Shown: piece after piece, positions 3,446 through 32,425 of the stretch
Position numbering within the stretch: position 1 is the first letter of the stretch
Layout: every line of letters begins with the position of its first letter
Origin: an uncultured Candidatus Saccharibacteria bacterium
GTDB taxonomy: Bacteria; Patescibacteriota; Minisyncoccia; Phycocordibacterales; UBA9973
Direction of reading: 5' to 3'
Assembly (NCBI GenBank): GCA_964637995.1
Contig: CAZWXV010000001.1
Coordinates: 41,186 to 77,788 of the forward strand
DNA length: 36,603 bases
Notes under the pieces: generated by a model
Databases searched by the model: none
Told to the model about the DNA's origin: nothing
Seen by the model: only the letters and a program-made list of their open reading frames with translations
Translations under genes and position numbers: made by a program

Positions 3446-4408
3446 TTAATCTCCGGCTCCGACATACACCCATTCCCCGTCTTCTGTAATTATAATTCTG
3501 AGCTGGGAAAGATCTCCCCGATCTATGGGCCAAGTATAACGTGCCTCGATGGCAGAATGAGGGCCTGAGGCGGGTATGTAAGGTGAAAATTCAAAAGGCA
3601 TCTGGAGAACCGAAATAATATCCGGATTATTCGCTTCAAAAAATTCACGGTCTCCTCCATGGAAATCTACTACTAATTTATCGTAATCTTTCGAGATTGC
3701 GGCTTGATAAATAGCTTGGCGTTTGGCTTCTACTAAAGGCGGAAGGCCTGCTTGAGCAGGAAGAGAAGGTTTCCAGTGATAATCTCCGGACAATAAAACT
3801 GATTTGTTGTCGATATCTAAAGTGTAATAATAAGAATCACCTTCGGTTCCATCTGTGGCCCTAGCGGATATCCGTGCAGTGTGATTTGGTACTATCCATT
3901 CTAAATCGTATGACAAGGGTGGAGTTTTTACTGCAACCTTATCGTACGTCTCTGACTTTATATCCCAAATTACTATTGATCTCAAATCTGGCGGACAATC
4001 ATAAGGCGGGTTAAACCCGCATTCTGAAAATGGAAAGGACCCGACAAAACCCAAAACCCTTTGCGAATCAGAAAACCAGACAAGGGCTCGGTCATATAAC
4101 GATTTTGAAAACACCGTGGTTTTGCCTGTTGCCACGTCAATTAACTTCAAACCATCGTCACTGGCATAAATAATCCATTTATTATCTGGAGAAGGATTGC
4201 AGGGGTAGGCACCCGGTATGCGAGCTATTGCTTCGCAGTGTGCTTCTATGGAAACTGGAGCCGAAGGATTTGGATTCTCAACAGGTGTAACTTTCGAAGT
4301 ATCTGCAATCTTCTCAACCTCCGCTTTTTGACTATCAAAATATTTTAAACCTAGAAACACAAAAACAAGAGCGGTAAGAAGGCTGATTATTAACCTTGTC
4401 TTTTTCAT
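3446..4408 (-). CDS. Hypothetical secreted or membrane-anchored protein, possibly beta-propeller-like
   Basis: 320-aa ORF with an N-terminal hydrophobic helix (LIISLLTALVFVFLGL). Strand-rich segments such as WIIYASDDGLKLIDVATGKTTVF resemble TolB-type blades. I recognised no catalytic motif. Confidence 0.6.
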   Translation of the reverse strand: MKKTRLIISLLTALVFVFLGLKYFDSQKAEVEKIADTSKVTPVENPNPSAPVSIEAHCEAIARIPGAYPCNPSPDNKWIIYASDDGLKLIDVATGKTTVFSKSLYDRALVWFSDSQRVLGFVGSFPFSECGFNPPYDCPPDLRSIVIWDIKSETYDKVAVKTPPLSYDLEWIVPNHTARISARATDGTEGDSYYYTLDIDNKSVLLSGDYHWKPSLPAQAGLPPLVEAKRQAIYQAAISKDYDKLVVDFHGGDREFFEANNPDIISVLQMPFEFSPYIPASGPHSAIEARYTWPIDRGDLSQLRIIITEDGEWVYVGAGD

Positions 4409-4416
4409 ATGGGCTT

Positions 4417-4422
4417 ATTATA
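4417..4422 (-). promoter_or_regulatory. -10 box TATAAT, 8 nt upstream of the ATG at 4408 (leaderless-type)
   Basis: The minus strand reads GAGGTATAAT-aagcccat-ATG. The box lies in the last codons of trmD. Confidence 0.35.
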
Positions 4423-5062
4423 CCTCGTTATTTCTCTTTTTCCACTCATCTATCAATTTATGATGGCCGGATAGAAGAACTGTTGGAACTTTGTAATTTT
4501 TACCTTTGTGTTTTAAAACTTCGGGGCGGGTGTATACCTCGCTTGAAGACACGCGTTCTTCTTCGAGCGATTCATATTTTCCCAAAATTCCCGGCACCTG
4601 TCGGGAAATGGAGTCGATAAGTATCATGGCTGGCAACTCGCCGCCGGTCAGCACGTAGTCCCCTATTGAAATTTCCTCAGCTTTCAGTATTTTTTGCACC
4701 CGGGCGTCTATGCCTTCATACCGGCCGGAAATTAAAATTATATCCGTGTATTTTTTTGCTGAGTTTTTAGCATATTGGGTAGTAAACTTTTTGCCACTTG
4801 GGGAAAATAAAATTATTTTAGTTTTCTTTCTGTCTTTTATTTTTATTTTTGAAAATGCTTTAAGGAAAAATTCCGGCCGGAGCACCATGCCGGGCCCTCC
4901 CCCGTAGGGCCTGCCGTCCACCCGTTCTTTGGGTTTGCAGAAACTCATCGGGTTATAAAATTTTATGGCAATCTTCTTGTCCTGTATGGCTCGCCCAATA
5001 ATAGACTCTTTCAAATAAGAGCCGAACATTTCCGGAAAAATTGTAATGATATGAAAACGCAT
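4418..5062 (-). CDS. trmD: tRNA (guanine37-N1)-methyltransferase
   Basis: The ORF-track start at 5080 is TTG. The ATG at 5062 gives MRFHIITIFPEMF, the canonical TrmD N-terminus. Motifs GGGPGMVL, ISGRYEGIDARV and GDYVLTGGELPAM are present. Confidence 0.95.
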   Translation of the reverse strand: MRFHIITIFPEMFGSYLKESIIGRAIQDKKIAIKFYNPMSFCKPKERVDGRPYGGGPGMVLRPEFFLKAFSKIKIKDRKKTKIILFSPSGKKFTTQYAKNSAKKYTDIILISGRYEGIDARVQKILKAEEISIGDYVLTGGELPAMILIDSISRQVPGILGKYESLEEERVSSSEVYTRPEVLKHKGKNYKVPTVLLSGHHKLIDEWKKRNNEV

Positions 5063-5068
5063 GTGCTT

Positions 5069-5077
5069 AATATAGCA
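5069..5077 (-). promoter_or_regulatory. Extended -10 TGCTATATT, 6 nt upstream of the trmD ATG
   Basis: The minus strand reads TGCTATATT-aagcac-ATG, immediately after the terminator at 5084-5110. Confidence 0.5.
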
Positions 5078-5083
5078 CAAAAT

Positions 5084-5110
5084 AAAAAAGCCCCGTAACG
5101 GGGCTTTTTT
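5084..5110. terminator. Bidirectional intrinsic terminator between the KH gene and trmD
   Basis: AAAAAA-GCCCCG-TAA-CGGGGC-TTTTTTATTTTTT. A GC stem is flanked by an A-run and a T-run. Confidence 0.7.
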
Positions 5111-5115
5111 ATTTT

Positions 5116-5460
5116 TTATATTCCTTTCAGGTCTTCCATTGCCTGGTCGACTGTCTTGAGGGTAGGCCCCTGAGACATACCGCCCGCCATATGACCCCCT
5201 TCTCTCATGCCTCCGGCCGGCTCGTTTATCTTCAGGTTTACGCGGGCATTATTCTTCATGCCGATGATGCGAAGGAGCGTCCGTATTGCCTTGGCAGTGT
5301 TGCCCATGCGGCCTATAATTTTCCCCATGTCGGCAGGATTTACCGTTAGCGTTATCAAAACGCCCATCTCGTCCACTGTCCGCTCGATTTTTACATCGTT
5401 CGGATTGTCAACGAGGGCTTTGACTACGTATTCCAGAAATACCTTGTCTGCTTCTTCCAT
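5116..5460 (-). CDS. KH-domain RNA-binding protein (YlqC/UPF0109 family) with a Gly/Met-rich C-terminal tail
   Basis: VVKALVDNPNDVKIE...VNPADMGKIIGRMGNTAKAIRTLL matches the KH GxxG core. The position directly after rpsP matches the rpsP-ylqC order seen in many bacteria. Confidence 0.85.
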   Translation of the reverse strand: MEEADKVFLEYVVKALVDNPNDVKIERTVDEMGVLITLTVNPADMGKIIGRMGNTAKAIRTLLRIIGMKNNARVNLKINEPAGGMREGGHMAGGMSQGPTLKTVDQAMEDLKGI

Positions 5461-5557
5461 GGTGTACAGAATTTTAAATTTTTAATGTAAATTTGCAGTA
5501 TTACGACCCCAGACTGCTATGCAGTAATTGTATCAAAAACCGGAATGGGTTGGCAAA

Positions 5558-5875
5558 TTATTTAGCAGCTTTGAGTTCTTTGCGCTTGACTGTAGGCTTT
5601 TTCTTGGGCAATACGTTCACTTTTTTTCCGGAGATGGTCTTGTCGTGCACCAGAAAGTTGTGCATGGTGTCGGACGGTTTGGCCCCTTGGCTTATCCAAT
5701 ATTTTATTCTTTCGGTGTTGAGCATCCTCTTGGCTCCCTCTTTGCCCCGAGGATTATAAGTGCCTAATATTTCCAAAAATCTTCCGCTTTTAGTGCTGTT
5801 CTTGGAGTCGGTCAGAACGGCCCGAAAGGATGGGTCGTTTTTCCTGCCAATTCTCTGGAATCTTATTTTTAACAT
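5558..5875 (-). CDS. rpsP: 30S ribosomal protein S16
   Basis: MLKIRFQRIGRKNDPSFRAVLTDS...GTYNPR is the canonical bS16 N-terminus. Confidence 0.97.
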   Translation of the reverse strand: MLKIRFQRIGRKNDPSFRAVLTDSKNSTKSGRFLEILGTYNPRGKEGAKRMLNTERIKYWISQGAKPSDTMHNFLVHDKTISGKKVNVLPKKKPTVKRKELKAAK

Positions 5876-5882
5876 ACGAGAA

Positions 5883-5910
5883 AGTCTAGCATAAAAGCTA
5901 AAAATTGCAA
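5883..5910 (-). promoter_or_regulatory. rpsP promoter: TTGCAA, 16 nt, TGC-TAGACT, then 7 nt to the ATG
   Basis: The -35 TTGCAA is at 5910-5905 and is palindromic. The extended -10 TGCTAGACT is at 5891-5883. The sequence ttctcgt then precedes the ATG at 5875. Confidence 0.55.
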
Positions 5911-5926
5911 CGTATCGGGGTTTTTA

Positions 5927-5935
5927 TGCTATATT
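5927..5935 (+). promoter_or_regulatory. Extended -10 TGCTATATT, 9 nt upstream of the rnr ATG
   Basis: TGCTATATT-tagctaaat-ATG(5945). It is divergent from the rpsP promoter. Confidence 0.5.
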
Positions 5936-5944
5936 TAGCTAAAT

Positions 5945-7915
5945 ATGAAGAATAGCAGGCACGACGGCAGGAGAAAGCACGACAGGAACCAGAAACCCCA
6001 AAGCGCCAACAAATTGTTGGGCACTATTTCTATTACTTCCAAAGGCACCGGTTACGTCCGGGTTTTGGACCGCAAAGAAGACGTTGAGATAGACTTCAAG
6101 CACCTTAAGACCGCTCTGCAGGGCGACACGGTGGAGATAGTCCTCCACCCCAAAAAGGGCGGTCGGGACACGGGCGAGGTTGCCGGCATCGTTGCCCGCG
6201 CTAAGATGCGTTTCGCCGGCGTGCTTGAGGAAGAAAATAAATTATTTTTTCTCAAGCCCGACGACACGAAAATGTATGTAGATATCCTGATTCCGCCCGC
6301 GACGCTCGCGGGCGCCAAGACGGGACAAAAGGTTCTGGCTGAGATAGTTTCCTGGTCCGACCCTCGCAAAGCGCCGGAAGGCAAGGTAATTAAAATTCTG
6401 GGCATGCCAGGCGACAACGACACCGAGATGCATGCCATCGCCATGGAGAAGGGCTTCGACTCGGAACTCCCGAGCAAGGTGGAAAACGAAGCGCGAAAAA
6501 TAAAAGAGGCGGGCATACAGGAATCGGACTACCAAGGCAGGCGGGATATGCGTAAAGTACTTACTTTCACCATTGACCCCAAAGACGCCAAGGATTTCGA
6601 CGACGCGCTCTCCTTCAGGCTTTCCAAGGAGGGTTTGTATGAATTAGGCATCCATATCGCGGATGTATCGCATTACGTCCGTCCCGGGAGCCTATTGGAC
6701 GAAGAAGCGCGCGGACGCGGAACTTCCGTCTATCTGGTGGACCGGACCATACCCATGCTGCCGGAAGTATTGTCCAACGACTTGTGCTCTCTTGTTCCCA
6801 ATAAGGACCGCCTCTGCATGAGCGCCATATTTATTTTGAATAAAAACGCGGAGGTAAAAGACCAGTGGTTCGGCCGCACAGTCATACATTCGCAAAAAAG
6901 ATTTACTTACGAGGAGGCGGAAAAATCCATCAAGGAATCTTCCGCCCCGCTGCACAAAGAACTTGCGCTCTTAAACGACCTGGCAAAGAAACTCACACAT
7001 GAACGATTCGCCCGCGGAGCGATATCTTTGGATCAGGAGGAGGTCCGTTTCGTGCTGGCACCGGACGGCACACCCCTGAAAGTGGAAATAAAACAGCGGG
7101 GAGATTCCAATCGCCTCATAGAAGAATTCATGCTCTTGGCCAACAAGAAAGTGGCAGAAACACTTTCCACCACCAAGAAAAAGGGTGTGCCGGATAATAT
7201 TTCCATCTACCGCGTGCATGACCTGCCCAGTAAGGAAAAAATGGCGGATCTGGCGGTATTTTTGAGAAGTCTGGGACTAAAAGCTCCTTTGGTGGACGGC
7301 ATCATTCCGAGCCATGAATTAAATAAACTCTTGAAGAATCTGTCCGGAAAAGATACCATGGCAGATACCGTGCACCGGGCGGTCATCCGCTCCATGGCCA
7401 AAGCCGTTTACTCCACCAAAAACATCGGGCATTACGGACTAGCATTCGAGTACTATACCCATTTCACCTCCCCCATCCGGCGTTATCCGGACATACTGGT
7501 CCATAGACTCTTGGATAACCACCTGGCCGGCAGAAAAATTCCCGCGGACAAACTGTTGGAATATGAAAAAATGTCCCTGGTCGCAAGCGAGCAGGAGAAG
7601 CGCGCCTCCGACGCTGAACGCGCTTCCATAAAATACAAGCAAGTGGAATACATGTCCTACCGCCGGGGCGAATATTTCGACGGCATCGTCAGCGGCATTA
7701 CCGAATGGGGAATGTATGTGGAAGAAGTACACACAAAATGTGAAGGCTTGGTGCGGGTACGGGATATGAATGACGATTTTTATGTTTTTGATGAAAAAAG
7801 ACTTTCATTTTCCGGCCAAAAGACCAAAAACTCTTACCGCTTGGGCGACCGTGTTAGAATAAAGGTCAAGGAGGCGGATTTGGAGCGAAAAACAATAGAT
7901 TACATTTTAGCTTGA
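5945..7915 (+). CDS. rnr: Ribonuclease R (RNB-family 3'-5' exoribonuclease with a C-terminal S1 domain)
   Basis: The RNB motifs DAKDFDDALS and HYGLAFEYYTHFTSPIRRYPDILVHR are present. The C-terminus has an S1-like segment, GIVSGITEWGMYVEE...GLVRVRDM. Confidence 0.93.
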   Translation: MKNSRHDGRRKHDRNQKPQSANKLLGTISITSKGTGYVRVLDRKEDVEIDFKHLKTALQGDTVEIVLHPKKGGRDTGEVAGIVARAKMRFAGVLEEENKLFFLKPDDTKMYVDILIPPATLAGAKTGQKVLAEIVSWSDPRKAPEGKVIKILGMPGDNDTEMHAIAMEKGFDSELPSKVENEARKIKEAGIQESDYQGRRDMRKVLTFTIDPKDAKDFDDALSFRLSKEGLYELGIHIADVSHYVRPGSLLDEEARGRGTSVYLVDRTIPMLPEVLSNDLCSLVPNKDRLCMSAIFILNKNAEVKDQWFGRTVIHSQKRFTYEEAEKSIKESSAPLHKELALLNDLAKKLTHERFARGAISLDQEEVRFVLAPDGTPLKVEIKQRGDSNRLIEEFMLLANKKVAETLSTTKKKGVPDNISIYRVHDLPSKEKMADLAVFLRSLGLKAPLVDGIIPSHELNKLLKNLSGKDTMADTVHRAVIRSMAKAVYSTKNIGHYGLAFEYYTHFTSPIRRYPDILVHRLLDNHLAGRKIPADKLLEYEKMSLVASEQEKRASDAERASIKYKQVEYMSYRRGEYFDGIVSGITEWGMYVEEVHTKCEGLVRVRDMNDDFYVFDEKRLSFSGQKTKNSYRLGDRVRIKVKEADLERKTIDYILA

Positions 7916-7933
7916 ATTTGACGGAAAATTTAC

Positions 7934-9850
7934 ATGAAGTTCGTAAGAAAAAACAAAAGAATAATCGTGTGGGCAGCTTTCCCGGTAGCCTTCGGGGTAT
8001 TGGTCTCTTCTTTTCTGTTCTCGTTTTTAAAAATCGGCAATGCTTTAGAAAATACAAAAAACGTGTTATTCGCGGTATCCATGGCGCCCGAAGAAAATCA
8101 GTCTGAAAAACCGCAATATTTTTACATAAACAAAAGCGAAGGCACAAAACCAAAAGTAAGCGCGCAGGCGTTCCTGGTCGGGGACTTGAAAACCGGCGAA
8201 GTTATCCTGTCGAAAAACCAAGAAACAAAATTCCCCATGGCATCGGTATCCAAGCTCATGACCGCGTTGGTTACGAGCGAGCTTGCGAAATCCGAGGATG
8301 TGGCCACGGTGAGTAAAAAAGCCATAGCCACTCTGGGCCAAAACGGCGAACTGCGGGCCGGGGAAAAAATAAAAGCCGCCGATCTCGTCTATCCCCTGCT
8401 CCTGGAGTCGTCAAACGACGCCGCGGAAGCACTCGCGGAACATTTCGGGCGGCAAAACTTTATGGATAAAATGAACCTGCAGGCGGAACAGCTTATGATG
8501 TCTTCCACGTCTTACGAAGATCCGAGCGGCCTTTCGCCAAATAATAAATCCACCGCCGCAGACCTGTTCAAGCTGGCTGGCTACATCGAAGAAAAACATG
8601 GGGAACTTTTTGACATTACTGCCAAGCGGAGCTATTCCGCGCCCAAGCACAACTGGTCCAACATCAGCCAGTTTTTGGGTAAGGACGGCTACTCCGGCGG
8701 GAAGAGCGGCTATACCGATGCCGCTCTCCAAAGCGGCGTGGCAATATTTGAATTGCCTTTGGGAGAATCCGGCACCCGGCCCATCGCTATCACCCTTCTC
8801 CGCAGTCTGGACCGCAAAAAGGACGTAGAGAATATTTTGAAATATTTGGGAAGCTACGTGTATTATGGCGGCAAGACCGACTCGGCACGGGCATGGGTAG
8901 AGGAGAAAGTCGGTATGCCACCGATATACGAACCATCTTTCGTAACTCTGTCTTTTCTGGGGGATATAATGCTGGACCGCGGAGTTCGGGGCTCGGTGGT
9001 CAAAAATTTTAAAAATGATTATTCCGCCCTTTTTGTAAAAATACCCCAGAAGCTCCTTAAGAATTCCGACATTGCGTTCGCGAACCTGGAAGGCACGGCC
9101 TCCGACCAGGGCGTAGACGGGAAAAATTTATATTCTTTCCGGATGGACCCGGGTGTAATCCCCGCTCTTGCCGGCGCAGGTCTTGATATCCTGTCCGTTG
9201 GGAACAACCATGTCGGCGACTGGGGGCGTTCCGCCTACGCAGATACTTTGTCACGCCTGAAGGAAAACGAGATTCTCTACACCGGCGGCGGCATGGGCGA
9301 AGCAGAAGCCGAAAAGCCGGTCATCATTGAAAAGTACAGCATGAAAATAGGATTTCTAGGATTTTCGGATGTAGGCCCCGCCTGGATGGAAGCGGGCAAG
9401 CAGAAGGCGGGTATGCCTGCGAAGGCAGGGCTGCTCCTTGCCAGCGACCCGCGTTTTGATGAAATCGTGCAAAATGCCGCCAGCCAAGTGGATTTTCTCA
9501 TCGTCTCCTTCCACTGGGGCGATGAATACCAGGCCAAACATAATGCCCGGCAGGAATATCTGGCACACCGCGCGGTGGACCATGGCGCGAAACTGATTAT
9601 CGGCCACCATCCTCATGTCGTCGAAGATACGGAAGTTTATAAAGAAAGTTTTATAGCTTATTCCCTTGGCAATTTCATCTTTGACCAATCATGGTCCAAG
9701 CCAACCATGCAAGGCATGCTCCTGCAGGTCAAGCTCTGGAAGGACGGCACGCTGGACGTAAAGAAAAACACCACCTACTTGAATTCCGTCTTTCAGCTCG
9801 ACCGCATAACGGAAGGCAAAGAGGAGAAAATAAAATTTCAGAATCCCTAG
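7934..9850 (+). CDS. Fusion protein: membrane-anchored D-alanyl-D-alanine carboxypeptidase (S11 PBP) plus a CapA/PGA_cap metallophosphoesterase-like domain
   Basis: An N-terminal TM helix is followed by the PBP triad SVSK (SxxK), SSND (SxN) and KSGYT (KTG-like). The C-terminal half carries the CapA blocks FANLEG, NNHVGDWG, VSFHWGDEY and IGHHPHV. Confidence 0.85.
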   Translation: MKFVRKNKRIIVWAAFPVAFGVLVSSFLFSFLKIGNALENTKNVLFAVSMAPEENQSEKPQYFYINKSEGTKPKVSAQAFLVGDLKTGEVILSKNQETKFPMASVSKLMTALVTSELAKSEDVATVSKKAIATLGQNGELRAGEKIKAADLVYPLLLESSNDAAEALAEHFGRQNFMDKMNLQAEQLMMSSTSYEDPSGLSPNNKSTAADLFKLAGYIEEKHGELFDITAKRSYSAPKHNWSNISQFLGKDGYSGGKSGYTDAALQSGVAIFELPLGESGTRPIAITLLRSLDRKKDVENILKYLGSYVYYGGKTDSARAWVEEKVGMPPIYEPSFVTLSFLGDIMLDRGVRGSVVKNFKNDYSALFVKIPQKLLKNSDIAFANLEGTASDQGVDGKNLYSFRMDPGVIPALAGAGLDILSVGNNHVGDWGRSAYADTLSRLKENEILYTGGGMGEAEAEKPVIIEKYSMKIGFLGFSDVGPAWMEAGKQKAGMPAKAGLLLASDPRFDEIVQNAASQVDFLIVSFHWGDEYQAKHNARQEYLAHRAVDHGAKLIIGHHPHVVEDTEVYKESFIAYSLGNFIFDQSWSKPTMQGMLLQVKLWKDGTLDVKKNTTYLNSVFQLDRITEGKEEKIKFQNP

Positions 9851-9867
9851 TGATTTCCCTAGGGATT
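9842..9867. promoter_or_regulatory. Perfect 9-bp inverted repeat AATCCCTAG-N8-CTAGGGATT (candidate operator or hairpin)
   Basis: The arms are at 9842-9850 and 9859-9867. The repeat overlaps the stop codon of the upstream gene and abuts the -10 of the AbrB-like micro-ORF. Confidence 0.45.
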
Positions 9868-9875
9868 GATATAAT
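9867..9875 (+). promoter_or_regulatory. Extended -10 TGATATAAT, 6 nt upstream of the ATG at 9882
   Basis: TGATATAAT-taagga-ATG. Confidence 0.45.
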
Positions 9876-10672: not shown

Positions 10673-12814
10673 TTATTTCGCTATCTGGGTAGCTTCTTCG
10701 AATTTTACGGACAGGAGTTTGGAGGCGCCGTCGGATCCTATGGTGATGCCGTAGAGCACCCCGGCGCGAGACATGGTTTCGCGGTTGTGGGTAACCACGA
10801 TGAGCTGGGAGCGCTTGGAGAGTTTTTCCAGCATGTCACCGTATTTGCGCGAGTTCGCTTCATCAAGCGCGGCATCGGTCTCGTCTAAGATGAGGAACGG
10901 CGGCGGGTTGACCTGGGACATCGCAAAGAGAAGCGCGATGGAGGTGAGTGAGCGCTCGCCGCCGGAGAAAGCATGCAGGTCTTTTACCTTTTTATGGGGC
11001 AAGGACACGTTTATCTCTATGCCCTGCTCGGGCTCGCCTTCCTCTTCGCCCGCCAAAGCCTCAGCGTCGGCGGGTTCTTCATTCTCATCAAATTCTATTT
11101 TTCTTCTTCGCCTCATCTCGGTCACGACAGCGAGCGAAGCATGCCCGCCGCCGAAAAGTATCGCGAAAAATTCCTGGAATTCCTTGTTTATTTTTTTAAC
11201 ACCCTCTTTAAATTCTGTATCGATCTTTTCTTTAAGATCGGTTATGAGCACTTTAAGGGACTCTATGCTTTTTCCCAAGTCTTCCAGCTCTTTCTCAAGG
11301 AATCGGTCCCGTTCGGTTACCTCTCCATATTCTTTCATTAGTTCCGCGCCGCCGCCGATTCCAGTGTCTTCCAGTTTTATTTTAATGCGTTCTATTTTTT
11401 TCTTTAATTCTTCCTGGGTGGTATCTGTCTTCTGATTGTCTTTGTTATTTTTGTAAGCCAAAATATCCTCGCCCAGGAGGACACCGCCCTCTTTGAGCTC
11501 GCTCTCAAAAGCGTCTTTCCGTATCCTTAAATTTTCTTCTTTTATTTTGACCAGTTCCAGTGCGGAATGAACTTCCTGCTCTCTGACTTTCCAAGCAAAT
11601 TTCTCACGCTCCAGATCCCGCAGAGCCTCCATCTCTTTATTAATGTCCTGTTTGAAGTTTTCCGCAAGCGCCGCATTTTCTTTTTCTTCGTTTTCAACCC
11701 GTCTAATCTCCGCAAGAGTTGACGCCTGTGTTTTTTTGAGTTCTTCCAATTCCTCGGTTTCGTGCCGCTTTTTTTCCGACTGCTCCGGGTCGGTCTCCGC
11801 AATAACGCTACCGCACATTGGGCACCGGCCGGAAATCTTGGCCTTCCTGTCCCCGGCCTCTATCATGCCCTCTATACGTCCGATTTTGCGCTCAAGTTCG
11901 TTCTTCTCCGACCGTAAAGAGTTTACCTTCTGCTCGACGGCGCGGAGGTCCTCTATTTTCTTTCCGCCCGAAGCATCATTTTGATCTTCAGTCTTGGAAA
12001 TTTTCGCGCTTACTTCGCGAAGTTCGCCCGACAACCGCCCGTGCTCCGAGGCAAGCTCGTTTTTTTCGCTTTGCAGGTAAATTTCTTCTTTTTTCAGATA
12101 TTTCCCGTAAAGAGCGGATAGTTCGCTACGCATTTCTTTTGCGCGCTCGAGCTTTTCCACCTGCTTTTCCAGAAACTTAAGGTGTGGCGCGTTCTCGCGG
12201 CGGAGCAGGGTCACCTCCTTCATGTTCTCGTTCGTCCGTTCGAGCTTTCGTTCGCTTTCTTTTATTTTGTACTGGTAGATGCGGAGGCCCAGGGCGTCTT
12301 CCACCATTTCTTTCCTATCGCGCGCCGATGCGGAGAGAATTCTGTCCGCCTCGCCCTGCGAAATTATATGGTGCCCGGAAGAGCCGATGTGGACCGATGC
12401 GAGCAGGCCATGGATATCTTTGAGCCGGACCTCCGAGCCATTCAAAATGTACTTGTTGACTCCGTCGGAGTAAACCTCGCGTGAAATAGAAATGACGTCA
12501 TAATTTAAATTTATATCTTCTCCCGCGTCATTCCAGAGTTTGAAAATTTTATCAGCATTATTGAAATAAGCAGTGATGGACGCGCGCGTGCCACGTGAGA
12601 GATTCTTGGATCCTTTAAATACCAGGTCCGCACCGCCCTTGCCGCGCATGGATTTCATGGACTGCTCGCCCAGAACGAAACGCACCGCTTCCACCACATT
12701 GGACTTTCCGCTGCCGTTCGGACCCACTATGGCCACTATGGGGCTCTCGAACTCCAAGACCGTTTTATGGGCGAAAGATTTAAAACCGTTTAAGGAAAGC
12801 GTTTTGAGCCGCAT
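10673..12814 (-). CDS. smc: SMC-family chromosome partition ATPase, short and hinge-less, with a central CPxCG motif
   Basis: SMC head motifs GFKSF, GPNGSGKSN, FSGGERSL, FLILDETDAALDEAN and VVTHN are present. The position directly downstream of rnc is the classic rnc-smc order. The protein is 713 aa with CPMCG at residues 331-335. Confidence 0.85.
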   Translation of the reverse strand: MRLKTLSLNGFKSFAHKTVLEFESPIVAIVGPNGSGKSNVVEAVRFVLGEQSMKSMRGKGGADLVFKGSKNLSRGTRASITAYFNNADKIFKLWNDAGEDINLNYDVISISREVYSDGVNKYILNGSEVRLKDIHGLLASVHIGSSGHHIISQGEADRILSASARDRKEMVEDALGLRIYQYKIKESERKLERTNENMKEVTLLRRENAPHLKFLEKQVEKLERAKEMRSELSALYGKYLKKEEIYLQSEKNELASEHGRLSGELREVSAKISKTEDQNDASGGKKIEDLRAVEQKVNSLRSEKNELERKIGRIEGMIEAGDRKAKISGRCPMCGSVIAETDPEQSEKKRHETEELEELKKTQASTLAEIRRVENEEKENAALAENFKQDINKEMEALRDLEREKFAWKVREQEVHSALELVKIKEENLRIRKDAFESELKEGGVLLGEDILAYKNNKDNQKTDTTQEELKKKIERIKIKLEDTGIGGGAELMKEYGEVTERDRFLEKELEDLGKSIESLKVLITDLKEKIDTEFKEGVKKINKEFQEFFAILFGGGHASLAVVTEMRRRRKIEFDENEEPADAEALAGEEEGEPEQGIEINVSLPHKKVKDLHAFSGGERSLTSIALLFAMSQVNPPPFLILDETDAALDEANSRKYGDMLEKLSKRSQLIVVTHNRETMSRAGVLYGITIGSDGASKLLSVKFEEATQIAK

Positions 12815-13524: not shown

Positions 13525-14442
13525 TTACTTCTTACTGATAATTTCTACCGCTTTGCCGATAAGCGGGATTATGTCGTTGTAAATGCGGAGCTCCGGGATA
13601 GCGGACACGGGAAACCAGCGAGCCCCATCAAGCCCGGTGGATTTCTCGAGCACAAGTTCCTTGTATTCGCTTCGCGCCAAAAAATATACCACTCGCTTCA
13701 AACTCTTGCCTTTTTCCGGGTGGGACGCCACATACTCGTTCTCTCCGAGTTTTTCTTCTATGTCGATGTCCAGCCCTATCTCCTCTTTTATCTCCCTCCT
13801 GGTTGCCTCTTCTTCGTTCTCATCTTCCGACATCCCACCCTTGGAAATGGTCCAGTAGCCGAAAACATCGTGCACCAGAGCAAACATCGCCACCCCGTCT
13901 TTGTGGGTATAGATAAGCGCTCCGCCTTTTTTATCCACCGGAAGCTTCGAGATGTCTACCGGTTCGTCTTTTTTCTTCTTGCGGCTCTGCTGGTCTTTGC
14001 CCGGCTCGCCGATTTCTTTGTAGACGGCACCCAGAACTCCATTCACAAATTTGCCGGAATTCTCACCGCCAAAAGTCTTCGCAAGCTCTATGGCTTCGTT
14101 GATGGCAACCTTGGGCGGCACTTCGGAGCTGTCACCGAAAAGAAGTTCCGTAAGCCCGATGCGTAAAATATTCCGGTCAATTACCGAAATTTTATCCAGA
14201 GGCCAGTCCGGCGCGGCTTTTTCTATTATCTCGTCCACCGTCGCGCGCTTCTTGAGTGTAAGTTCCAGGAGCGCGGACGCGAAAGGGTCCTCCTCGAAAC
14301 CGGGAGCAAATTCCACAAGATTCCTTTTTAAAGTATCTTTTATCTCGAGGTCGGAATTTGCGGGCTTTTGGTCAGCCGGCAAGAAATCCCATTCGAAAAG
14401 AGTTTGGAGCACTATTGACCTTGAAAGGTGCCGATTAGCCAT
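13525..14442 (-). CDS. nusB: Fusion protein: transcription antitermination factor NusB plus a Nudix hydrolase
   Basis: The N-terminal ~145 aa are NusB-like (SRSIVLQTLFEWDF, KVAINEAIELAKTFGGENSGKFVNGVLG). A Lys-rich linker follows. The C-terminal part has a perfect Nudix box, GGMSEDENEEEATRREIKEEIGL. Confidence 0.85.
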   Translation of the reverse strand: MANRHLSRSIVLQTLFEWDFLPADQKPANSDLEIKDTLKRNLVEFAPGFEEDPFASALLELTLKKRATVDEIIEKAAPDWPLDKISVIDRNILRIGLTELLFGDSSEVPPKVAINEAIELAKTFGGENSGKFVNGVLGAVYKEIGEPGKDQQSRKKKKDEPVDISKLPVDKKGGALIYTHKDGVAMFALVHDVFGYWTISKGGMSEDENEEEATRREIKEEIGLDIDIEEKLGENEYVASHPEKGKSLKRVVYFLARSEYKELVLEKSTGLDGARWFPVSAIPELRIYNDIIPLIGKAVEIISKK

Positions 14443-14754: not shown

Positions 14755-14782
14755 ATACTAGCATATTATGGACGGAAAGCAA
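14755..14782 (-). promoter_or_regulatory. rpmF promoter: TTGCTT, 16 nt, TGC-TAGTAT, then 9 nt to the ATG
   Basis: The extended -10 TGCTAGTAT is at 14763-14755. The sequence gaaaccact then precedes the ATG at 14745. Confidence 0.5.
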
Positions 14783-14799: not shown

Positions 14800-14828
14800 T
14801 TGACAAAAAAACTACCTTTTGCTATTAT
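14800..14828 (+). promoter_or_regulatory. Promoter of the thrS leader: TTGACA, 17 nt, TGC-TATTAT
   Basis: A consensus -35 is at 14800-14805, followed by an exact 17-nt spacer and the extended -10 at 14820-14828. Confidence 0.7.
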
Positions 14829-14835
14829 TATAGAT

Positions 14836-14991
14836 GTGTAGAGATTGTTATGGCTACCAACCATAATCCCTAGATTGAAGGGACCGTCTGGCTAATCTAC
14901 AACAAACAAAAAGAACAAAGTTGGGTGGAACCGCGAAATAGACTCGCCCCGACAAAAAGTGATAATTTTCATTTTTTGTCGGGGCGATTTT
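14836..14991 (+). promoter_or_regulatory. T-box riboswitch leader (threonine-type) with a terminator/antiterminator switch
   Basis: The T-box sequence AAAGUUGGGUGGAACCGCG is at 14917-14935. In the antiterminator, GUUGGG (14920-25) pairs with CCCGAC (14948-53). It has a 7-nt bulge UGGAACC, and GCG (14933-35) pairs with CGC (14945-47). A competing 14-bp terminator pairs 14945-14958 with 14973-14986 and is followed by AUUUUAAUUUU. AGAGA sits at the 5' end. ACC (Thr) triplets are at 14856, 14860 and 14883. Confidence 0.8.
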
Positions 14992-15015
14992 AATTTTAAT
15001 TAATAAAATAAATAT

Positions 15016-16251
15016 ATGGAAAAAGACGACAGTCGAGACCATAAGAGAATCGGTAAAGAGCTGGAGCTCTTTACCTTTAGCGACACTGTCGGCAAAGGTC
15101 TGCCTTTATGGCTGCCAAAAGGCGCAACGGTTCGCCGCGAGCTGGAACGTTTTATAATTGACGAAGAACTCCGCCGAGGGTACCTGCATGTGCGCACACC
15201 GGACATTGCGAAGCTGGAACTTTTCAAAAAGTCCGGACATTATCCGCACTATAAAAACTCAATGTATGCTCCGATAGCCATTGATGATGAGGAATTTATG
15301 CTCCGCCCGATGACCTGCCCGCATCATTTTGAACTTTATCTTTCAAAACCTCATAGTTATCGAGAGCTCCCGATACGCATTGCCGAACTTGCCCAATTAT
15401 ACCGATACGAACAATCGGGAGAACTTATGGGCTTGCAGAGAGTGCGAACTTTCTGCCTGGCTGATGCGCATATCATATGCGCAAACGAAGAACAGGCAAT
15501 TGAAGAAATGAGCAAGGCGCTTGACCTTATAGAATATGTTACCTCTGTTTTTAATCTCAAGCTTGATGTTGATTACCGATACCGGTTGTCGCTTGGGGAC
15601 AGGCATAATACAGAAAAATATTATAAAAATGACGAAGCCTGGGAAAAGGGTGAAGATTTAATGCACAAACTAATGCAAAAGAGAGGGTCTAAGTATGAAG
15701 AAGCAAAAGATGAGGCAGCTTTCTACGGACCAAAAATCGACATTCAAATGAAAAATGCAAATGGCAAAGAAGATACAGCTTTCACTGTACAGTATGACTT
15801 TTGTATGCCGGGAAAATTTAACCTAAATTATATTGGAGAAGACGGCAAAGACCACTTGGCTTTTGTGGTACATCGCTCATCCATCGGAGCAATAGAGCGA
15901 ATAATGGCCTTCCTTATAGAAAAATATGTGGGAGCTTTTCCTCTCTGGCTCGCGCCAGTGCAGGTAAAAGTTATCCCCGTGCGCATCAACCATAACGAAT
16001 ACGCAAAAGAAGTTGCCAATTTATTGAAAGAAAATAATATCCGAGTAGAGCTTGACGATAGTGACTCAAACCTCGGGGGCAAAGTCCGCGATGCGAAAAA
16101 CAACAAAGTTCCCTACTGGATAGTTCTTGGCGACAAGGAAATCGAGGCCAAAAAAGTGACCTTGGAATCCCGCGATGCGGGACAACTCGGCCAAATGTCC
16201 AAGGAAGAGCTTGTCCAAAAACTAACTGAGGAGATTCAAAGCAAAAAATGA
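15016..16251 (+). CDS. thrS: Threonyl-tRNA synthetase, catalytic plus anticodon-binding domains only (no TGS or editing domains)
   Basis: The 411-aa protein begins 6 residues before the RDHKRIGKELELF motif that opens the catalytic core. Motifs MLRPMTCPHH, YRYEQSGELMGLQRVRTFCLADAHI and HRSSIGAIERIMAFLIE are present. Confidence 0.93.
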   Translation: MEKDDSRDHKRIGKELELFTFSDTVGKGLPLWLPKGATVRRELERFIIDEELRRGYLHVRTPDIAKLELFKKSGHYPHYKNSMYAPIAIDDEEFMLRPMTCPHHFELYLSKPHSYRELPIRIAELAQLYRYEQSGELMGLQRVRTFCLADAHIICANEEQAIEEMSKALDLIEYVTSVFNLKLDVDYRYRLSLGDRHNTEKYYKNDEAWEKGEDLMHKLMQKRGSKYEEAKDEAAFYGPKIDIQMKNANGKEDTAFTVQYDFCMPGKFNLNYIGEDGKDHLAFVVHRSSIGAIERIMAFLIEKYVGAFPLWLAPVQVKVIPVRINHNEYAKEVANLLKENNIRVELDDSDSNLGGKVRDAKNNKVPYWIVLGDKEIEAKKVTLESRDAGQLGQMSKEELVQKLTEEIQSKK

Positions 16252-16841: not shown

Positions 16842-18940
<2,099 letters not shown>

Positions 18941-19286: not shown

Positions 19287-19373
19287 TGAACTACTCCCCC
19301 AATGCCGATTTCGCCCAGCTTTGCGGTTCTGCAAAGAACACCATAGGGTTTTAGATTGACCCAAAAACGACCA

Positions 19374-19395
19374 AGCCCTCCGTGATTGGAGGGCT
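19374..19395 (-). terminator. Terminator-like hairpin: AGCCCUCC, AAUCAC, GGAGGGCU, then UUGGUCGUUUUU
   Basis: A perfect 8-bp stem with a 6-nt loop. The U-rich tract lies only on the minus-strand side. Confidence 0.45.
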
Positions 19396-19499
19396 CGTGT
19401 GGAAACCTGTCAAATACTTTTGCAAATACGCCAGTAAAAGCTAAGCACCGAAAGGTTTCCGCATGAACCCCCCAATTTGGCGTATTTCCATTTAGTTGT

Positions 19500-19528
19500 A
19501 AAAGAACAAAAAAGCCCCCGAGAGGGCT
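19500..19528 (-). terminator. Intrinsic terminator: AGCCCU, CUCG, GGGGCU, then UUUUUUGUUCUUUU
   Basis: The stem spans 19528-19513. It has 6 bp on the minus strand (including one G-U pair) but only 5 on the plus strand. A strong U-run lies on the minus strand. Confidence 0.55.
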
Positions 19529-19643
19529 GGTGTTTGAGTTGTAAATTTTGGTTTTAGTAGTTTTTACAGCGCAAATATCAGCCCTCTAGAAGAGAGTTGA
19601 TAATGACGAGTACCAAATTTGCCTGTAAATTTTTCACATTCGT

Positions 19644-19670
19644 ATTATAGCACATATGAAAAGGATGCAA
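19644..19670 (-). promoter_or_regulatory. Orphan promoter: TTGCAT, 15 nt, TGC-TATAAT, with no ORF behind it
   Basis: A consensus copy of the window's promoter motif is at 19652-19644, just downstream of the pheT stop. The only nearby ATG is immediately followed by TGA. Confidence 0.5.
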
Positions 19671-22194: not shown

Positions 22195-22205
22195 ATTCTA
22201 CAGCA
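22195..22205 (-). promoter_or_regulatory. pheS promoter element TGCTG-TAGAAT, 7 nt upstream of the ATG
   Basis: The minus strand reads TGCTGTAGAAT-aaaaaac-ATG(22187). Confidence 0.4.
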
Positions 22206-28109: not shown

Positions 28110-28117
28110 TATCCCCT

Positions 28118-28123
28118 ATTATA
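28118..28123 (-). promoter_or_regulatory. -10 box TATAAT, 8 nt upstream of the helicase-nuclease ATG
   Basis: The minus strand reads GTGTATAAT-aggggata-ATG(28109). The aggggata spacer could alternatively act as a weak SD. Confidence 0.35.
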
Positions 28124-28130
28124 CACCAGG

Positions 28131-29051: not shown

Positions 29052-29797
29052 TACGATATCTTAGCAAAAAAGCCCACCTTTGTCCTTTTTATCCGGTAGG
29101 CCAGCGCGGGAATCCCCAGACGTTCGCCCAGTGCATGGGCAATGGCACGCACATATGTGCCGGAGGAACTTCGGATTGCAAAACCGGCTATATAAAAATT
29201 CACAGATTCTTTGCCGGCCAATTTTTTACGCCAAATGCTTGAAATTTCTTTCTGCCGGAAATCCCCGTCCACCTTGCCGATCCTTTTTATAATATCTGAT
29301 AATAGCTTTTGTCCGCTTGCTCTTTTAATCCCTAAAAATTTAAGTTTTTTTATGGTAACTTCCCGGGTGGGGAGTTCTACCGCCTTTTCGTCCCTGCCGT
29401 ACTCCCAGAGTTGTTTGCCCTTTACGGTCTTGGACGAATAGAGCGGGTATGTCTGCCGGAATCTGCCTCTGAAATACTTTAGGTTTTTTGTAATATCTTT
29501 TGTTCCAATGTTCGTTAGAACTTTAGAACTTACTATTTTGCCTAAGATGTCGTATGTATCCGTCGCAAAACCGAAGAGGACTTCGAATTCATATTCTTTG
29601 TCCAGCACCAAATATTTTTCTTTATTACTGACTTCCTCGCCCAAGAGTGCAAGAAGCACTCCACTCGCCATCGGGTCCAACCGGCCGGCGTAGGTCATTT
29701 TTATATTTTCATATTTTTTACTCTTGGCACGCAAACGCAAGAGCGCGGCAAGCGGTGTCTCCCCCTCTCTTTTGTTAAGGATTAAAATACTTTTCAT
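29051..29797 (-). CDS. truB: tRNA pseudouridine synthase, TruB family
   Basis: The catalytic-Asp block YAGRLDPMASGVLLAL is present. The protein is 248 aa. Confidence 0.85.
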   Translation of the reverse strand: MKSILILNKREGETPLAALLRLRAKSKKYENIKMTYAGRLDPMASGVLLALLGEEVSNKEKYLVLDKEYEFEVLFGFATDTYDILGKIVSSKVLTNIGTKDITKNLKYFRGRFRQTYPLYSSKTVKGKQLWEYGRDEKAVELPTREVTIKKLKFLGIKRASGQKLLSDIIKRIGKVDGDFRQKEISSIWRKKLAGKESVNFYIAGFAIRSSSGTYVRAIAHALGERLGIPALAYRIKRTKVGFFAKIS

Positions 29798-29805
29798 TTA
29801 ACCAA

Positions 29806-29814
29806 ATACTAGCA
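29806..29814 (-). promoter_or_regulatory. Extended -10 TGCTAGTAT, 8 nt upstream of the truB ATG
   Basis: The minus strand reads TGCTAGTAT-ttggttaa-ATG(29797). This is the same 9-mer as at rpmF. Confidence 0.5.
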
Positions 29815-29857
29815 TGCTGGACTTTCTTTTTGGCAAAAAAGGTGTAAATTATGGATA

Positions 29858-30181: not shown

Positions 30182-30195
30182 GTCACATTTTCTCT

Positions 30196-31062
30196 CTAAT
30201 TTACTTCGTCCATCGCGTCCTCGGCGAGATTCTCGGCATCCCGCGCAAAATCTTCCGCGTCGTCATAATTCTTGTCATCGTATTCGTCCTCCGCGTCATT
30301 AAGTCGGTCTTCGGCGTCATCCAGGAAATTTTCGGCCCGGCGGATAATGGTTATGCTTACCCCGCGGCGGCGTGCGTCGTCTATTTCGTCCTCGGCGTCA
30401 TTGATCGCGTCTTCCGCGTCGTTTATTGCGTCCTGCGCGTCCTCCTTATCGCCACTACTTCGGTCTCCACCCGCATCCTCAAACGCATCTTCCGCGTCCC
30501 GGTAAGCGTCGTCCGCCAGATTGTAAGCTTCGGCAAAATCCCGGTTGACGAAGAATTCATGTACGGCCTCGAGCATATTGTCTTCCGCGTCCTCTAGACT
30601 GTCCTCCGCGGAACTAGTATTGCGATTGGAGTCGTCTATCTCATCCCGCGTGTCTTCCATCATCCGGAGCGCCTCGTCTATCCTCTGCCTGGCGCTTGCT
30701 TCTTCCGTATTGCCGCCATAGTAACCGCCGACTCCGCCATAGCCCCCCGCAGGCTCAACATATTTTGCCCGTGACGCCGCATCAAAATATCCGGTTGGAG
30801 GTAAGCTCTTCGTTGTCTGCCATTGCATGACTGCCTGCGTGGTCATCGGACCGAAAAAACCGTCCGGAATCATGTAGTTCTGGTAGGGCGCGCCATAATA
30901 GCCGGAACCGCTAGACCCCAGATACTGCTGCAGGCATCTTACGTCTTCGCCCCAGCTGCCCTGCCCCAGGTCGCGAGTAAAGTTGCAGTTTGCGGCTTCG
31001 GCATTGAGGGCTACAAATAAGGCCGAACTTAGAAACAATACGCTAAAAATCTTTGTTTTCAT
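30196..31062 (-). CDS. Secreted protein: signal peptide, PG_binding_1 domain, Gly/Tyr linker and an acidic DAED-repeat helical tail
   Basis: The signal peptide is MKTKIFSVLFLSSALFVALNAEA. The PG-binding block is GEDVRCLQQYLG...PDGFFGPMTTQAVMQWQ. The linker is GGYGGVGGYYGG. Seven exact DAED motifs follow. Confidence 0.8.
   Translation of the reverse strand: MKTKIFSVLFLSSALFVALNAEAANCNFTRDLGQGSWGEDVRCLQQYLGSSGSGYYGAPYQNYMIPDGFFGPMTTQAVMQWQTTKSLPPTGYFDAASRAKYVEPAGGYGGVGGYYGGNTEEASARQRIDEALRMMEDTRDEIDDSNRNTSSAEDSLEDAEDNMLEAVHEFFVNRDFAEAYNLADDAYRDAEDAFEDAGGDRSSGDKEDAQDAINDAEDAINDAEDEIDDARRRGVSITIIRRAENFLDDAEDRLNDAEDEYDDKNYDDAEDFARDAENLAEDAMDEVN
30211..30612 (-). repeat. In-frame degenerate repeats encoding DAED-type motifs, including a 21-bp tandem pair
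   Basis: The plus-strand motif TC(Y)TC(S)GCGTC recurs at least 9 times. Segments 30391-30411 and 30412-30432 each encode DAINDAE. Confidence 0.8.
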
Positions 31063-31199
31063 AGAGTTTTTATAGTTAATTTATAATGAAAAACACAAAA
31101 AACCTTGGTCTTTTTTCATTCTACTACCTTGTCTTTTTTTAGCAACCCGGGCCATACCGGCTTTCTTTTTACAAAAAATAATGTAGATTAAAGAGTGTT

Positions 31200-31289
31200 G
31201 GAGGCGTCGCATAGCGGTCTAGTGCACCACCTTGGAAAGGTGGCATGGGGTTACTCCCATCGAGAGTTCGAATCTCTCCGCCTCCGCCA
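31200..31289 (+). tRNA. tRNA-Ser (anticodon GGA), class II with a long variable arm and an encoded CCA
   Basis: The acceptor stem pairs GGAGGCG with CGCCTCC. The anticodon stem CCACC/GGTGG carries the loop TTGGAAA. The variable arm is CATGGGGTTACTCCCATC, the T-loop is GTTCGAATC, and the 3' end is GCCA. Confidence 0.95.
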
Positions 31290-31373
31290 GTAGTTTTGAA
31301 AAGTGAGCATTAAAATACCCTTGTTTTAAGCTACTTTCTAAAACTGAAAAGTGATAAAATATAAGAACCCTAG

Positions 31374-31478
31374 AGGGATTCGAACTATGAGGGCGATTCT
31401 GTGCAAAAGCCGAGCGTTCAAGTTATAGCAAAAATTGCAAAGGCACTCGACATTTCTGTAGAAGATTTGTTAAAATAA
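31374..31478 (+). pseudogene. Remnant of an XRE-family helix-turn-helix gene (C-terminal half only, no start codon)
   Basis: The frame reads RDSNYEGDSVQKPSVQVIAKIAKALDISVEDLLK and then stops. This matches the recognition-helix and C-terminal part of HTH_XRE proteins. An in-frame TAG sits at 31371 and there is no ATG. Confidence 0.5.
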
Positions 31479-31483
31479 TGTAT

Positions 31484-31846
31484 ATGAATAAAAAATCAAG
31501 TGAGCTGTTGGGTATCGCCCGGTTCAAGATTCACGAGGGCAAACTTGAGGAGTTCAAGCGCTTGTCCGCGGAGTGCATTGAGATTGCGCGAGCCAAGGAC
31601 AATGGAACATTGCAGTACGATGTCTACATCAACGAGGACAAATTGGAAGCAGTCGTCATTGAACGATACAAAGACTCCGAAGCACTCATCCAACACCTAG
31701 CGAACAATAGGGATGCGGCAAAAGAAATTTTTCTTACGGGATCGATCTCAGGCGAACTTCTTGGCGAACCGAACGCAGAGCTCAAGGCGATGCTAGAAGG
31801 TAGCAAGGAACCTCGTCTTTTTACAACGCCCTTCTTGTCAATGTAA
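31484..31846 (+). CDS. ABM-domain (antibiotic-biosynthesis-monooxygenase-like) small protein
   Basis: The product is 120-122 aa. YDVYINEDKLEAVVIERYKDSEALIQH resembles the ferredoxin-like ABM fold motif. The start could be 31478 or 31484, and TAAAAT lies 7 nt before 31484. Confidence 0.6.
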   Translation: MNKKSSELLGIARFKIHEGKLEEFKRLSAECIEIARAKDNGTLQYDVYINEDKLEAVVIERYKDSEALIQHLANNRDAAKEIFLTGSISGELLGEPNAELKAMLEGSKEPRLFTTPFLSM

Positions 31847-32020
31847 ACACCGCCGGAATGGGTAGTTAATACTGTTTTTGAGCAAAAGTAGGGACATCGA
31901 ATAAGGCAGGATTTTCCTTGTGGATTCGTCTTAAATCCCTCACGATCTTATCAACACTTCTGAAATTAAACCTTTTCGGTTCTAACTTCGGGACATCGCC
32001 ACCGCAAATTTTCGAAAAAA

Positions 32021-32029
32021 TGCTATAAT
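32021..32029 (+). promoter_or_regulatory. Extended -10 TGCTATAAT, 30 nt upstream of the ATG at 32060
   Basis: A perfect copy of the recurring motif. Here it leaves a short SD-less leader. Confidence 0.5.
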
Positions 32030-32059
32030 TAAGGTCTTATTAACAACTTTTAACTTTTT

Positions 32060-32425
32060 ATGTCTAACGAAAAAAAGTTTGAGTGGGCGCTCCGGATAGG
32101 CGTAGCCGGAGAATTTTTGGGTCATGGATTGCTCGCAGTAGGAGGCAAGGCTGACTGGATAGCCTGGATCAGCCAGTTGACGGGAGCTGGCGCGGAAACG
32201 GCGGCAACTTTGCTAATGCTCGTGGGCGCCACAGATATTCTGGTCGCGGCGATAGTTTTAATCAGACCGGTTAAGCCGGTTTTGCTTTGGGCGGCATTCT
32301 GGGGCTTTTGGACCGCATTGGTGCGGCCTTTGGTCGGGCAATCATGGCTCGACTTTATTGAAAGGTTCGCGAACTGGGCGGCACCTTTGGCTCTTTACTA
32401 CTTCTATAAAAGCAAGGGCAAGTAA
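32060..32425 (+). CDS. Small integral membrane protein (DoxX-like?)
   Basis: 121 aa with 3-4 predicted hydrophobic helices. The family assignment is weak. Confidence 0.55.
   Translation: MSNEKKFEWALRIGVAGEFLGHGLLAVGGKADWIAWISQLTGAGAETAATLLMLVGATDILVAAIVLIRPVKPVLLWAAFWGFWTALVRPLVGQSWLDFIERFANWAAPLALYYFYKSKGK

Follow-up and report, generated by a model that had tools for sequence, protein, structure and literature searches.

Extended -10 promoters adjoining the start codon point to leaderless, Shine-Dalgarno-independent gene expression in a Nomurabacteria-like groundwater bacterium

A 36,603-nucleotide stretch of contig CAZWXV010000001.1 (positions 41,186 to 77,788; hereafter the window) raises the question of how translation is started in a genome in which a recurring box, TGnTAnnnT, lies only a few nucleotides before the ATG at the head of many transcription units. 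The window is dense, comprising 31 protein genes and one tRNA-Ser with 6.8% non-coding DNA. The original prediction held that these genes are predominantly leaderless and expressed without Shine-Dalgarno (SD) sequences. GyrB from the window is 83-90% identical to that of metagenome-assembled genomes labelled Candidatus Nomurabacteria or Paceibacterota (Candidate Phyla Radiation, CPR), and a 77.7-kb groundwater scaffold (ANAN16-1 scaffold_233) carries the gene for an identical RpoB protein; the host is a groundwater CPR bacterium, Nomurabacteria-like. Our analysis makes it very likely that sigma-70 extended -10 promoters abut the ATG in this organism, which would give rise to leaderless mRNAs whose translation does not depend on SD pairing.

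All boxes listed in the original prediction were found at the positions and spacings given there, and the recurring motif is, judged by its letters, an extended -10 element TGnTAnnnT (TGNTANNNT). The narrower pattern TGCTAnAnT (TGCTANANT) had been reported in nine copies, all non-coding, and this number had been used as an argument against chance. The window contains seven copies, one of which (3180-3188, plus strand) sits antisense within rpoB, and the boxes of rpmF and truB (TGCTAGTAT), thrS (TGCTATTAT) and the AbrB-like open reading frame (ORF; TGATATAAT), which had been assigned to the narrower pattern, fit only TGnTAnnnT. As 4.04 copies are expected and 13 of 100 shuffled sequences contain seven or more, the raw count is no evidence; enrichment by number was dropped as an argument and placement was tested instead. 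A scan with a generic -35/-10 consensus was likewise uninformative, yielding about 1.4-1.5 times more sites than shuffles and missing most promoters of the window because their -35 element is weak. It is placement, not number, that is significant: six of the seven strict copies fall within the non-coding DNA (P ~7e-7), and among the 49 TGnTAnnnT sites on both strands, 15 of them non-coding, eight to nine end on the correct strand 6-9 nt ahead of an annotated ATG, with 0.08 being expected (P ~3e-14).

The distance between box and start was also determined in related genomes, where long ORFs were called mechanically and the distance was measured from any TGnTAnnnT to the first ATG. Across 160 loci around gyrB and rnr (1.94 Mb, 1312 ORFs) the counts were 0-5 at distances of 0-5 nt, rose to 78, 62, 39, 26, 16 and 16 for the six distances from 6 to 11 nt and fell to about 4 further out. 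The distribution has its hard lower edge at 6 nt and is sharply peaked at 6-8 nt; internal in-frame ATGs as controls gave 0-4 per distance. The spike was repeated in an independent set from the same clade, consisting of 70 loci around 16S rRNA genes devoid of an anti-SD sequence (26 boxes at 6 nt among 308 ORFs), and it was also present in other Parcubacteria, represented by loci around TrmD of an anti-SD-positive genome (915 ORFs). Comparing motif and start positions across genomes showed the box to be enriched 6-8 nt before the ATG.

This enrichment is restricted to operon heads. A box at 6-11 nt precedes 27% of the genes whose neighbour is divergent and, among same-strand genes, 15-23% of those separated by at least 20 nt, as compared to 3% where the upstream gene is less than 20 nt away and 1.1% in the internal ATG controls. 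When distances of 6-10 nt were considered, the box was found at 23% of the heads in the closest genomes (internal genes, 2%) and at 19% in more distant ones, internal genes ranging from 1 to 4% overall, and other offsets in the same upstream regions gave a background of 1-2%. Of 482 protein families, 66 carry the box, 33 of them singletons, demonstrating that the signal does not stem from one repeated gene; in rpsP the box is kept in 36 of 51 relatives and in rnr in 35 of 73. An origin of the pattern from chance and A/T-rich intergenic composition, with which the strict copy number and the modest excess in the generic scan would agree, is effectively refuted by the placement in the window, the background at other offsets and the replication in three independent sets of relatives, and its probability is negligible.

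An alignment of 237 sites on the TG dinucleotide revealed a T-rich stretch before the TG and, exactly 17 nt upstream of the hexamer, a -35 consensus TTGnCA (T61 T59 G42 n C36 A42). The mean number of mismatches to TTGACA was 2.78 at a spacing of 16-18 nt versus 3.5-3.6 at shifted spacings. The TG dinucleotide is a contact of RNA polymerase, mediated by sigma-70 region 3.0. Because of the -35 partner at 17 nt we assign the box to a sigma-70-type extended -10 promoter and not to a ribosome-binding site. If the A/T-rich box were instead a non-SD ribosome-binding signal on leadered mRNAs, resembling that of Bacteroidota (GeneMarkS-2 'group B'), one could understand why all upstream regions are A/T-rich and G-poor, why T is favoured at position -1 at internal starts too and why plain TANNNT is also raised before internal genes. 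A ribosome-binding site, however, would precede both kinds of genes, whereas the TG-extended box is 7-20 times commoner at operon heads, and the TANNNT excess at internal genes results from the TAA or TAG stop codon of the upstream gene falling in range. The -35 partner, the polymerase-contacting TG and a distance distribution with a hard edge at exactly 6 nt likewise argue against a ribosome signal, rendering this explanation most improbable. The preferred T at -1 (46-65%), favoured even at operon-internal starts, would provide the favoured pyrimidine-purine start dinucleotide.

In a survey of 49 bacteria transcription starts were centred 7 bp downstream of the -10 element (PMC12641261), so with a gap of 6 nt, +1 falls on the A of the ATG. 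Such a hard edge at 6 nt would be expected if a transcript has to include its ATG. In the proposed promoter layout a -35 element TTGnCA, a 17-nt spacer and TG-n-TAtaaT are followed by the A of the ATG 7-10 nt past the last T of the hexamer; as transcription normally starts 7 nt after the -10 element, we infer that the transcript begins at the ATG or 1-3 nt before it and would be a leaderless mRNA. Such an mRNA would presumably be bound directly via its 5' AUG, without pairing to rRNA. In other bacteria leaderless mRNAs are bound by 70S ribosomes, or by 30S subunits together with initiator tRNA, without SD pairing.

Leaderless transcripts also presuppose that the start codons are correct. All candidate starts are ATG, and except for trmD, pheS and the ABM gene there is no possible start between the preceding in-frame stop and this ATG, so the 5' ends of those genes cannot move upstream; in trmD the sole upstream start candidate is a TTG within the box itself. 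The opposite shift, real promoters followed by ordinary leaders and true starts further downstream, was considered as well, since starts are unverified in an uncultured genome and the ABM gene has two nearby ATGs. Residue 1 of RpsP aligns to residue 1 of solved S16, the N-terminus of TrmD aligns to solved TrmD from residue 1-4, and residue 5 of TruB aligns to residue 6 of solved TruB, meaning that in all three proteins tested a downstream start would truncate a conserved N-terminus. The relatives of GyrB, moreover, share the N-terminus MAKE directly after the box, and the peak at 6-8 nt was measured to the first ATG of long ORFs, which would be impossible if that ATG were irrelevant. A downstream shift is therefore highly unlikely.

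SD cores, defined as GGAG, GAGG or AGGA at a spacing of 4-12 nt upstream of the start, precede none of the 31 genes of the window, in agreement with the predicted SD-less expression. In the relatives they were found at 2.9% of operon-internal starts and 8.8% of heads versus 11% of random coding ATGs. The 16S rRNA gene of the window organism was found neither in the window and the 10 kb beyond it nor in the 160 related loci, and the inspection of the 16S 3' end suggested by the original prediction was carried out on other relatives. As first seen in the partial 16S of one locus (L121), the '515F' site of this Paceibacteria clade reads GTGCCAGCAGGAGCGGTAA instead of the universal GCCGCGG; standard 515F primers would thus mismatch this clade. 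A genome scan for the variant gave 120 Paceibacteria 16S loci (L163-L282), nearly all matches being titled as CPR or Parcubacteria genomes. Of the 74 3' ends that could be recovered, 69 have a AAUAAUUCAAUU-type tail after helix 45 instead of AUCACCUCCUUA, and CCUCC is missing. Among these altered 16S genes are that of Nomurabacteria L215 and those of L193, L231 and L233, and L215 belongs to the same genome as locus L008, whose GyrB is 85% identical to that of the window. In the Rfam alignment the tail of L215 reads GGAAUAAUUCAAUU versus GGAUcACCUCCUUu in the model, and the other three likewise have GGAAUAAUUCAAUU in place of GGAUCACCUCCUU. The altered tail is transcribed, and related strains share k-mers up to helix 45. 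Leaderless, SD-less operon heads fit a lineage that has lost the CCUCC tail of its 16S rRNA; if the SD-less reading is true, the tail in the genome of the window would read GGAAUAAUUCAA, not CCUCC. Words complementary to the new tail (AAUUGAAUUAUU-type) showed no enrichment upstream of starts over composition-matched permutations, giving no sign of a replacement pairing, and an 'alternative SD' was rejected.

Other Parcubacteria (Moran-, Yanofsky-, Nealsonbacteria and others) keep GGAUCACCUCCUU in eight of nine 16S tails, and these anti-SD-positive genomes exhibit a small SD peak at a spacing of 6-7 nt together with a weaker leaderless spike (5.9% of 915 ORFs). As weak SD use and a leaderless spike coexist in CCUCC-bearing Parcubacteria, low SD dependence and leaderless heads seem to be older than the loss of the anti-SD, which suggests that reliance on SD pairing had faded before the anti-SD disappeared.

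Operon-internal genes have neither a box nor an SD sequence, with gaps to the upstream gene of -4 to +12 nt, and in the relatives the commonest gaps are -4, -1 and +1 to +4 nt. Most likely they are translated by termination-reinitiation coupling, with internal promoters, such as those of the 320-aa hypothetical gene (hyp320) within trmD and of terC within truB, possibly restarting expression occasionally.

Several observations weigh against a strictly or generally leaderless organization. Gaps of 8-10 nt imply leaders of 1-3 nt or flexible start-site choice, and gaps of 11-13 nt, as observed for gyrB in relatives, correspond to a short leader and are not strictly leaderless. The heads of rpoB, nusB, proB and the PG-binding gene have no convincing box in the window. 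As start calls in the relatives are ORF-based and crude, the fractions across the lineage are lower bounds. 'Predominantly' leaderless holds for the window, in which TANNNT lies 6-10 nt from the ATG in 13-14 of the approximately 19-20 promoter-proximal genes; for the relatives, the figure of about 17-29% of operon heads is a lower bound only. Anti-SD loss was read from relatives whose GyrB is at most 85% identical to that of the window. In groundwater metatranscriptomes (X24-X27) the rRNA of a relative was covered, and the mRNA genes of L215, L082 and L008 were not; the RNA runs of the window's own study are tiny SOLiD libraries from which no mRNA 5' ends were obtained. The support for leaderless expression, i.e. 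the distance, the restriction to operon heads, the -35 partner and the secure starts, is comparative throughout.

Positions of the individual boxes and of the leadered and non-coding units are compiled in Table 1.

Table 1. Predicted promoter boxes, leader and non-coding RNA in the window
Unit	Element	Positions	Strand	Distance to start and context
hyp320 (320-aa hypothetical gene)	TATAAT	4417..4422	-	8 nt to ATG 4408; inside trmD 3' end
trmD	extended -10 TGCTATATT	5069..5077	-	6 nt to ATG 5062
rpsP	extended -10 TGCTAGACT	5883..5891	-	7 nt to ATG 5875
rnr	extended -10 TGCTATATT	5927..5935	+	9 nt to ATG 5945; divergent from rpsP promoter
AbrB/SpoVT-like 55-aa ORF	extended -10 TGATATAAT	9867..9875	+	6 nt to ATG 9882; hairpin precedes box
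rpmF	extended -10 TGCTAGTAT	14755..14763	-	9 nt to ATG 14745
thrS promoter	complete sigma-70: TTGACA-N14-TGC-TATTAT	14800..14828	+	
thrS leader	T-box-like, ~180 nt	14835..15015	+	
gyrB	extended -10 TGCTATAAT	18932..18940	-	8 nt to ATG 18923
orphan RNA	conserved non-coding, ~140 nt, long imperfect hairpin	19495..19637	-	
orphan unit	extended -10 TGCTATAAT	19644..19652	-	drives conserved small RNA, no protein gene
pheS	TAGAAT	22195..22200	-	7 nt to true ATG 22187; terminator hairpin just before
UvrD-type helicase-nuclease	TATAAT	28118..28123	-	8 nt to ATG 28109
terC	extended -10 TGCTAAGAT	29058..29066	-	6 nt to ATG 29051; inside truB 3' end
truB	extended -10 TGCTAGTAT	29806..29814	-	8 nt to ATG 29797
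Trbp111-type tRNA-binding gene	TAAATT	29845..29850	+	7 nt to ATG 29858; divergent from truB
ABM gene	TGTTAAAAT	31468..31476	+	1 nt to first ATG 31478, 7 nt to second ATG 31484
121-aa membrane protein	extended -10 TGCTATAAT	32021..32029	+	30-nt A/U-rich leader without SD, ATG 32060

The weaker boxes had been proposed for six genes. Those of hyp320, pheS, the helicase-nuclease gene and the Trbp111-type gene were recovered at the expected spacing, that of the PG-binding gene reads TATAAA and lacks the key final T, and the assignment of the ABM box is ambiguous, as TGTTAAAAT extends over the final codons of a 25-aa HTH remnant and is thus partly coding. This remnant (31401-31478, plus strand) is similar to the C-terminus of an XRE/HTH regulator (SVQVIAKIAKALDISVEDLLK), and its stop codon overlaps the first ABM ATG. 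The hyp320 box is a predicted internal promoter. The trmD box directly follows a bidirectional terminator (5079-5115), and a -35-like TTGCCC is located 16 nt upstream of the pheS box. Two boxes had been overlooked, a weak one of the KH gene, 10 nt from the start, and that of terC, whose start codon overlaps the stop codon of truB (TAATG).

In close relatives the gyrB box and a gap of 6-13 nt are conserved while the spacer sequence drifts freely, and in more distant relatives a hairpin-containing leader of about 35 nt lies downstream of the promoter. In six loci (L046, L047, L050, L059, L069 and L077; positions ~2950-3000) a TGCTAnAnT promoter precedes a gyrB leader in which a GC hairpin and a U-run lie immediately ahead of the ATG; this leader looks like an attenuator.

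The three leadered sites of the original prediction, 14820-28 for thrS, 32021-29 for the membrane protein and 19652-44 for the orphan unit, are all present. The structured thrS leader (z = -5.7) contains an ACC specifier within GGCUACCAACC, the T-box sequence GGGUGGAACCGCG and a 19-bp terminator (14944-14987). It looks like a compact Thr (ACC) T-box but scored only 24.3 bits (E 0.14) against the Rfam T-box model RF00230, whose gathering score is 93. The thrS ATG (15016) is preceded by an A/U-rich stretch without SD (UUAAUUAAUAAAAUAAAUAU-AUG), indicating that leadered mRNAs lack an SD too; both thrS and the gene for the 121-aa membrane protein would be started in A/U-rich, G-poor sequence. ThrS itself (15016-16251) is short, its 411 aa comprising the catalytic core and the anticodon domain only. 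In many relatives ThrS has 584 aa, and in 27 of 56 of these a leaderless-type box replaces the leader.

The core of the orphan RNA (19503-19595) forms a hairpin UAGAGGGCUG...CAGCCCUCUA with an inner GCUGUAA/UUACAAC, and the 3' hairpin arm can instead pair with a downstream GGGGGCU followed by a U-run as a terminator, a layout that can be riboswitch- or attenuator-like. Homologues were found only in L001, L002, L005, L011 (two copies), L015 and L031, located 200-700 nt upstream of gyrB on the same strand except for one L011 copy that is about 2.3 kb upstream, and a search of Rfam gave no match at E<1. Between the orphan RNA and gyrB lies a second structured stretch (19330-19480, minus strand), whose long-range helix AAAUACGCCA...UGGCGUAUUU is succeeded by the strong terminator GAGCCCUCC-AAUCAC-GGAGGGCUU plus U-run; a non-conserved small ORF comes next. 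In L215, besides rRNA and flanking spacer, the only stretches expressed in four groundwater metatranscriptomes are a low-depth piece (7748-7905) and a 190-nt RNA (1969-2160). The latter is encoded on the minus strand, begins 7 nt after a GATAAT box and contains a lysine-rich 21-codon ORF (MAAKKKVAKKAKAKKTTKKRA).

Domain compositions were noted for further genes of the window. A NusB domain and a C-terminal NUDIX hydrolase domain are fused in one 305-aa protein (13525-14442, minus strand), and in a 638-aa protein (7934-9850, plus strand) a D-Ala-D-Ala carboxypeptidase (Peptidase_S11) domain and a PGA_cap (CapA-like) domain occur together. The SMC-like protein (10673-12814, minus strand) has just 713 aa, and as the SMC_N head halves span residues 3-698 the coiled coil must be much shortened. 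In the relative L062 a 23S rRNA gene (6094-8082) starts about 1 kb downstream of gyrB without a 16S gene upstream, indicating that the rRNA genes are unlinked in L062.

The leaderless GeneMarkS-2 'group C' genomes, which comprise Actinobacteria, e.g. Mycobacterium and Streptomyces, and Deinococcus-Thermus, are marked by a Pribnow box located 6-8 nt ahead of the start (PMC6028130). As in group C, the -10 box lies 6-8 nt before the first gene's start and is missing at internal genes, and the transcript carries the start codon at its 5' end, which is predicted from sequence here. The arrangement concerns 25-50% of operons in group C and at least about 20-30% in the present lineage, including most heads of the window. 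In contrast to group C, this lineage belongs to the CPR/Paceibacteria and has a medium GC content of about 48% instead of a high one, and its box is usually TG-extended with a recognisable -35 element. Moreover, the remaining genes of group C use SD sequences, whereas here SD cores are depleted everywhere and the relatives lack the anti-SD. Rare SD motifs and A-rich, G-poor start regions are shared with the Bacteroidota. Bacteroidota keep their anti-SD but sequester it, have mostly leadered mRNAs and use promoters of the -33/-7 type. In the present lineage, by contrast, the anti-SD is replaced and the promoters appear to be classic sigma-70 promoters with an extended -10. Like the extended -10 (TGn) promoters of E. 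coli and Firmicutes they have the TG one base before TATAAT, an often weak -35 element and a 17-nt spacing; mechanistically the promoter would be the same, and the unusual feature is its position relative to the ATG.

A subgroup of Parcubacteria without anti-SD has been described by Tsurumaki et al. (2022, RNA 28:1041; PMC9297842), and the same rRNA change in the same clade was re-derived here. That study reports the rRNA loss only and leaves translation start open, the term 'leaderless' occurring nowhere in its text; the promoter-at-ATG architecture would be the mRNA-side counterpart of this loss. Within the library of papers searched, we found no link of leaderless mRNAs to CPR, Patescibacteria, Parcubacteria or Saccharibacteria and nothing on-topic for SD and Patescibacteria. 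The predicted promoters represent a new lineage for the known leaderless architecture of the Actinobacteria/Deinococcus type.

The promoter at the ATG would provide a concrete answer to how translation of operon-first genes starts in anti-SD-less Parcubacteria, with reinitiation serving the rest. The chances are about even that the clade has abandoned SD pairing entirely, with a rewritten tail, leaderless first genes and reinitiated downstream genes, an archaeal-like and supposedly ancestral mode. In practical terms, gene callers tuned to SD sequences will place starts wrongly in these genomes, joint prediction of promoters and starts should be possible, and heterologous expression and genetic tools for CPR bacteria should use leaderless designs. 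With the host of the window, a mid-GC lineage of ultra-small genomes would join the leaderless-rich groups, which so far are mostly high-GC, and this bears on the question whether leaderless initiation is ancestral or has re-evolved as ribosomes simplify.

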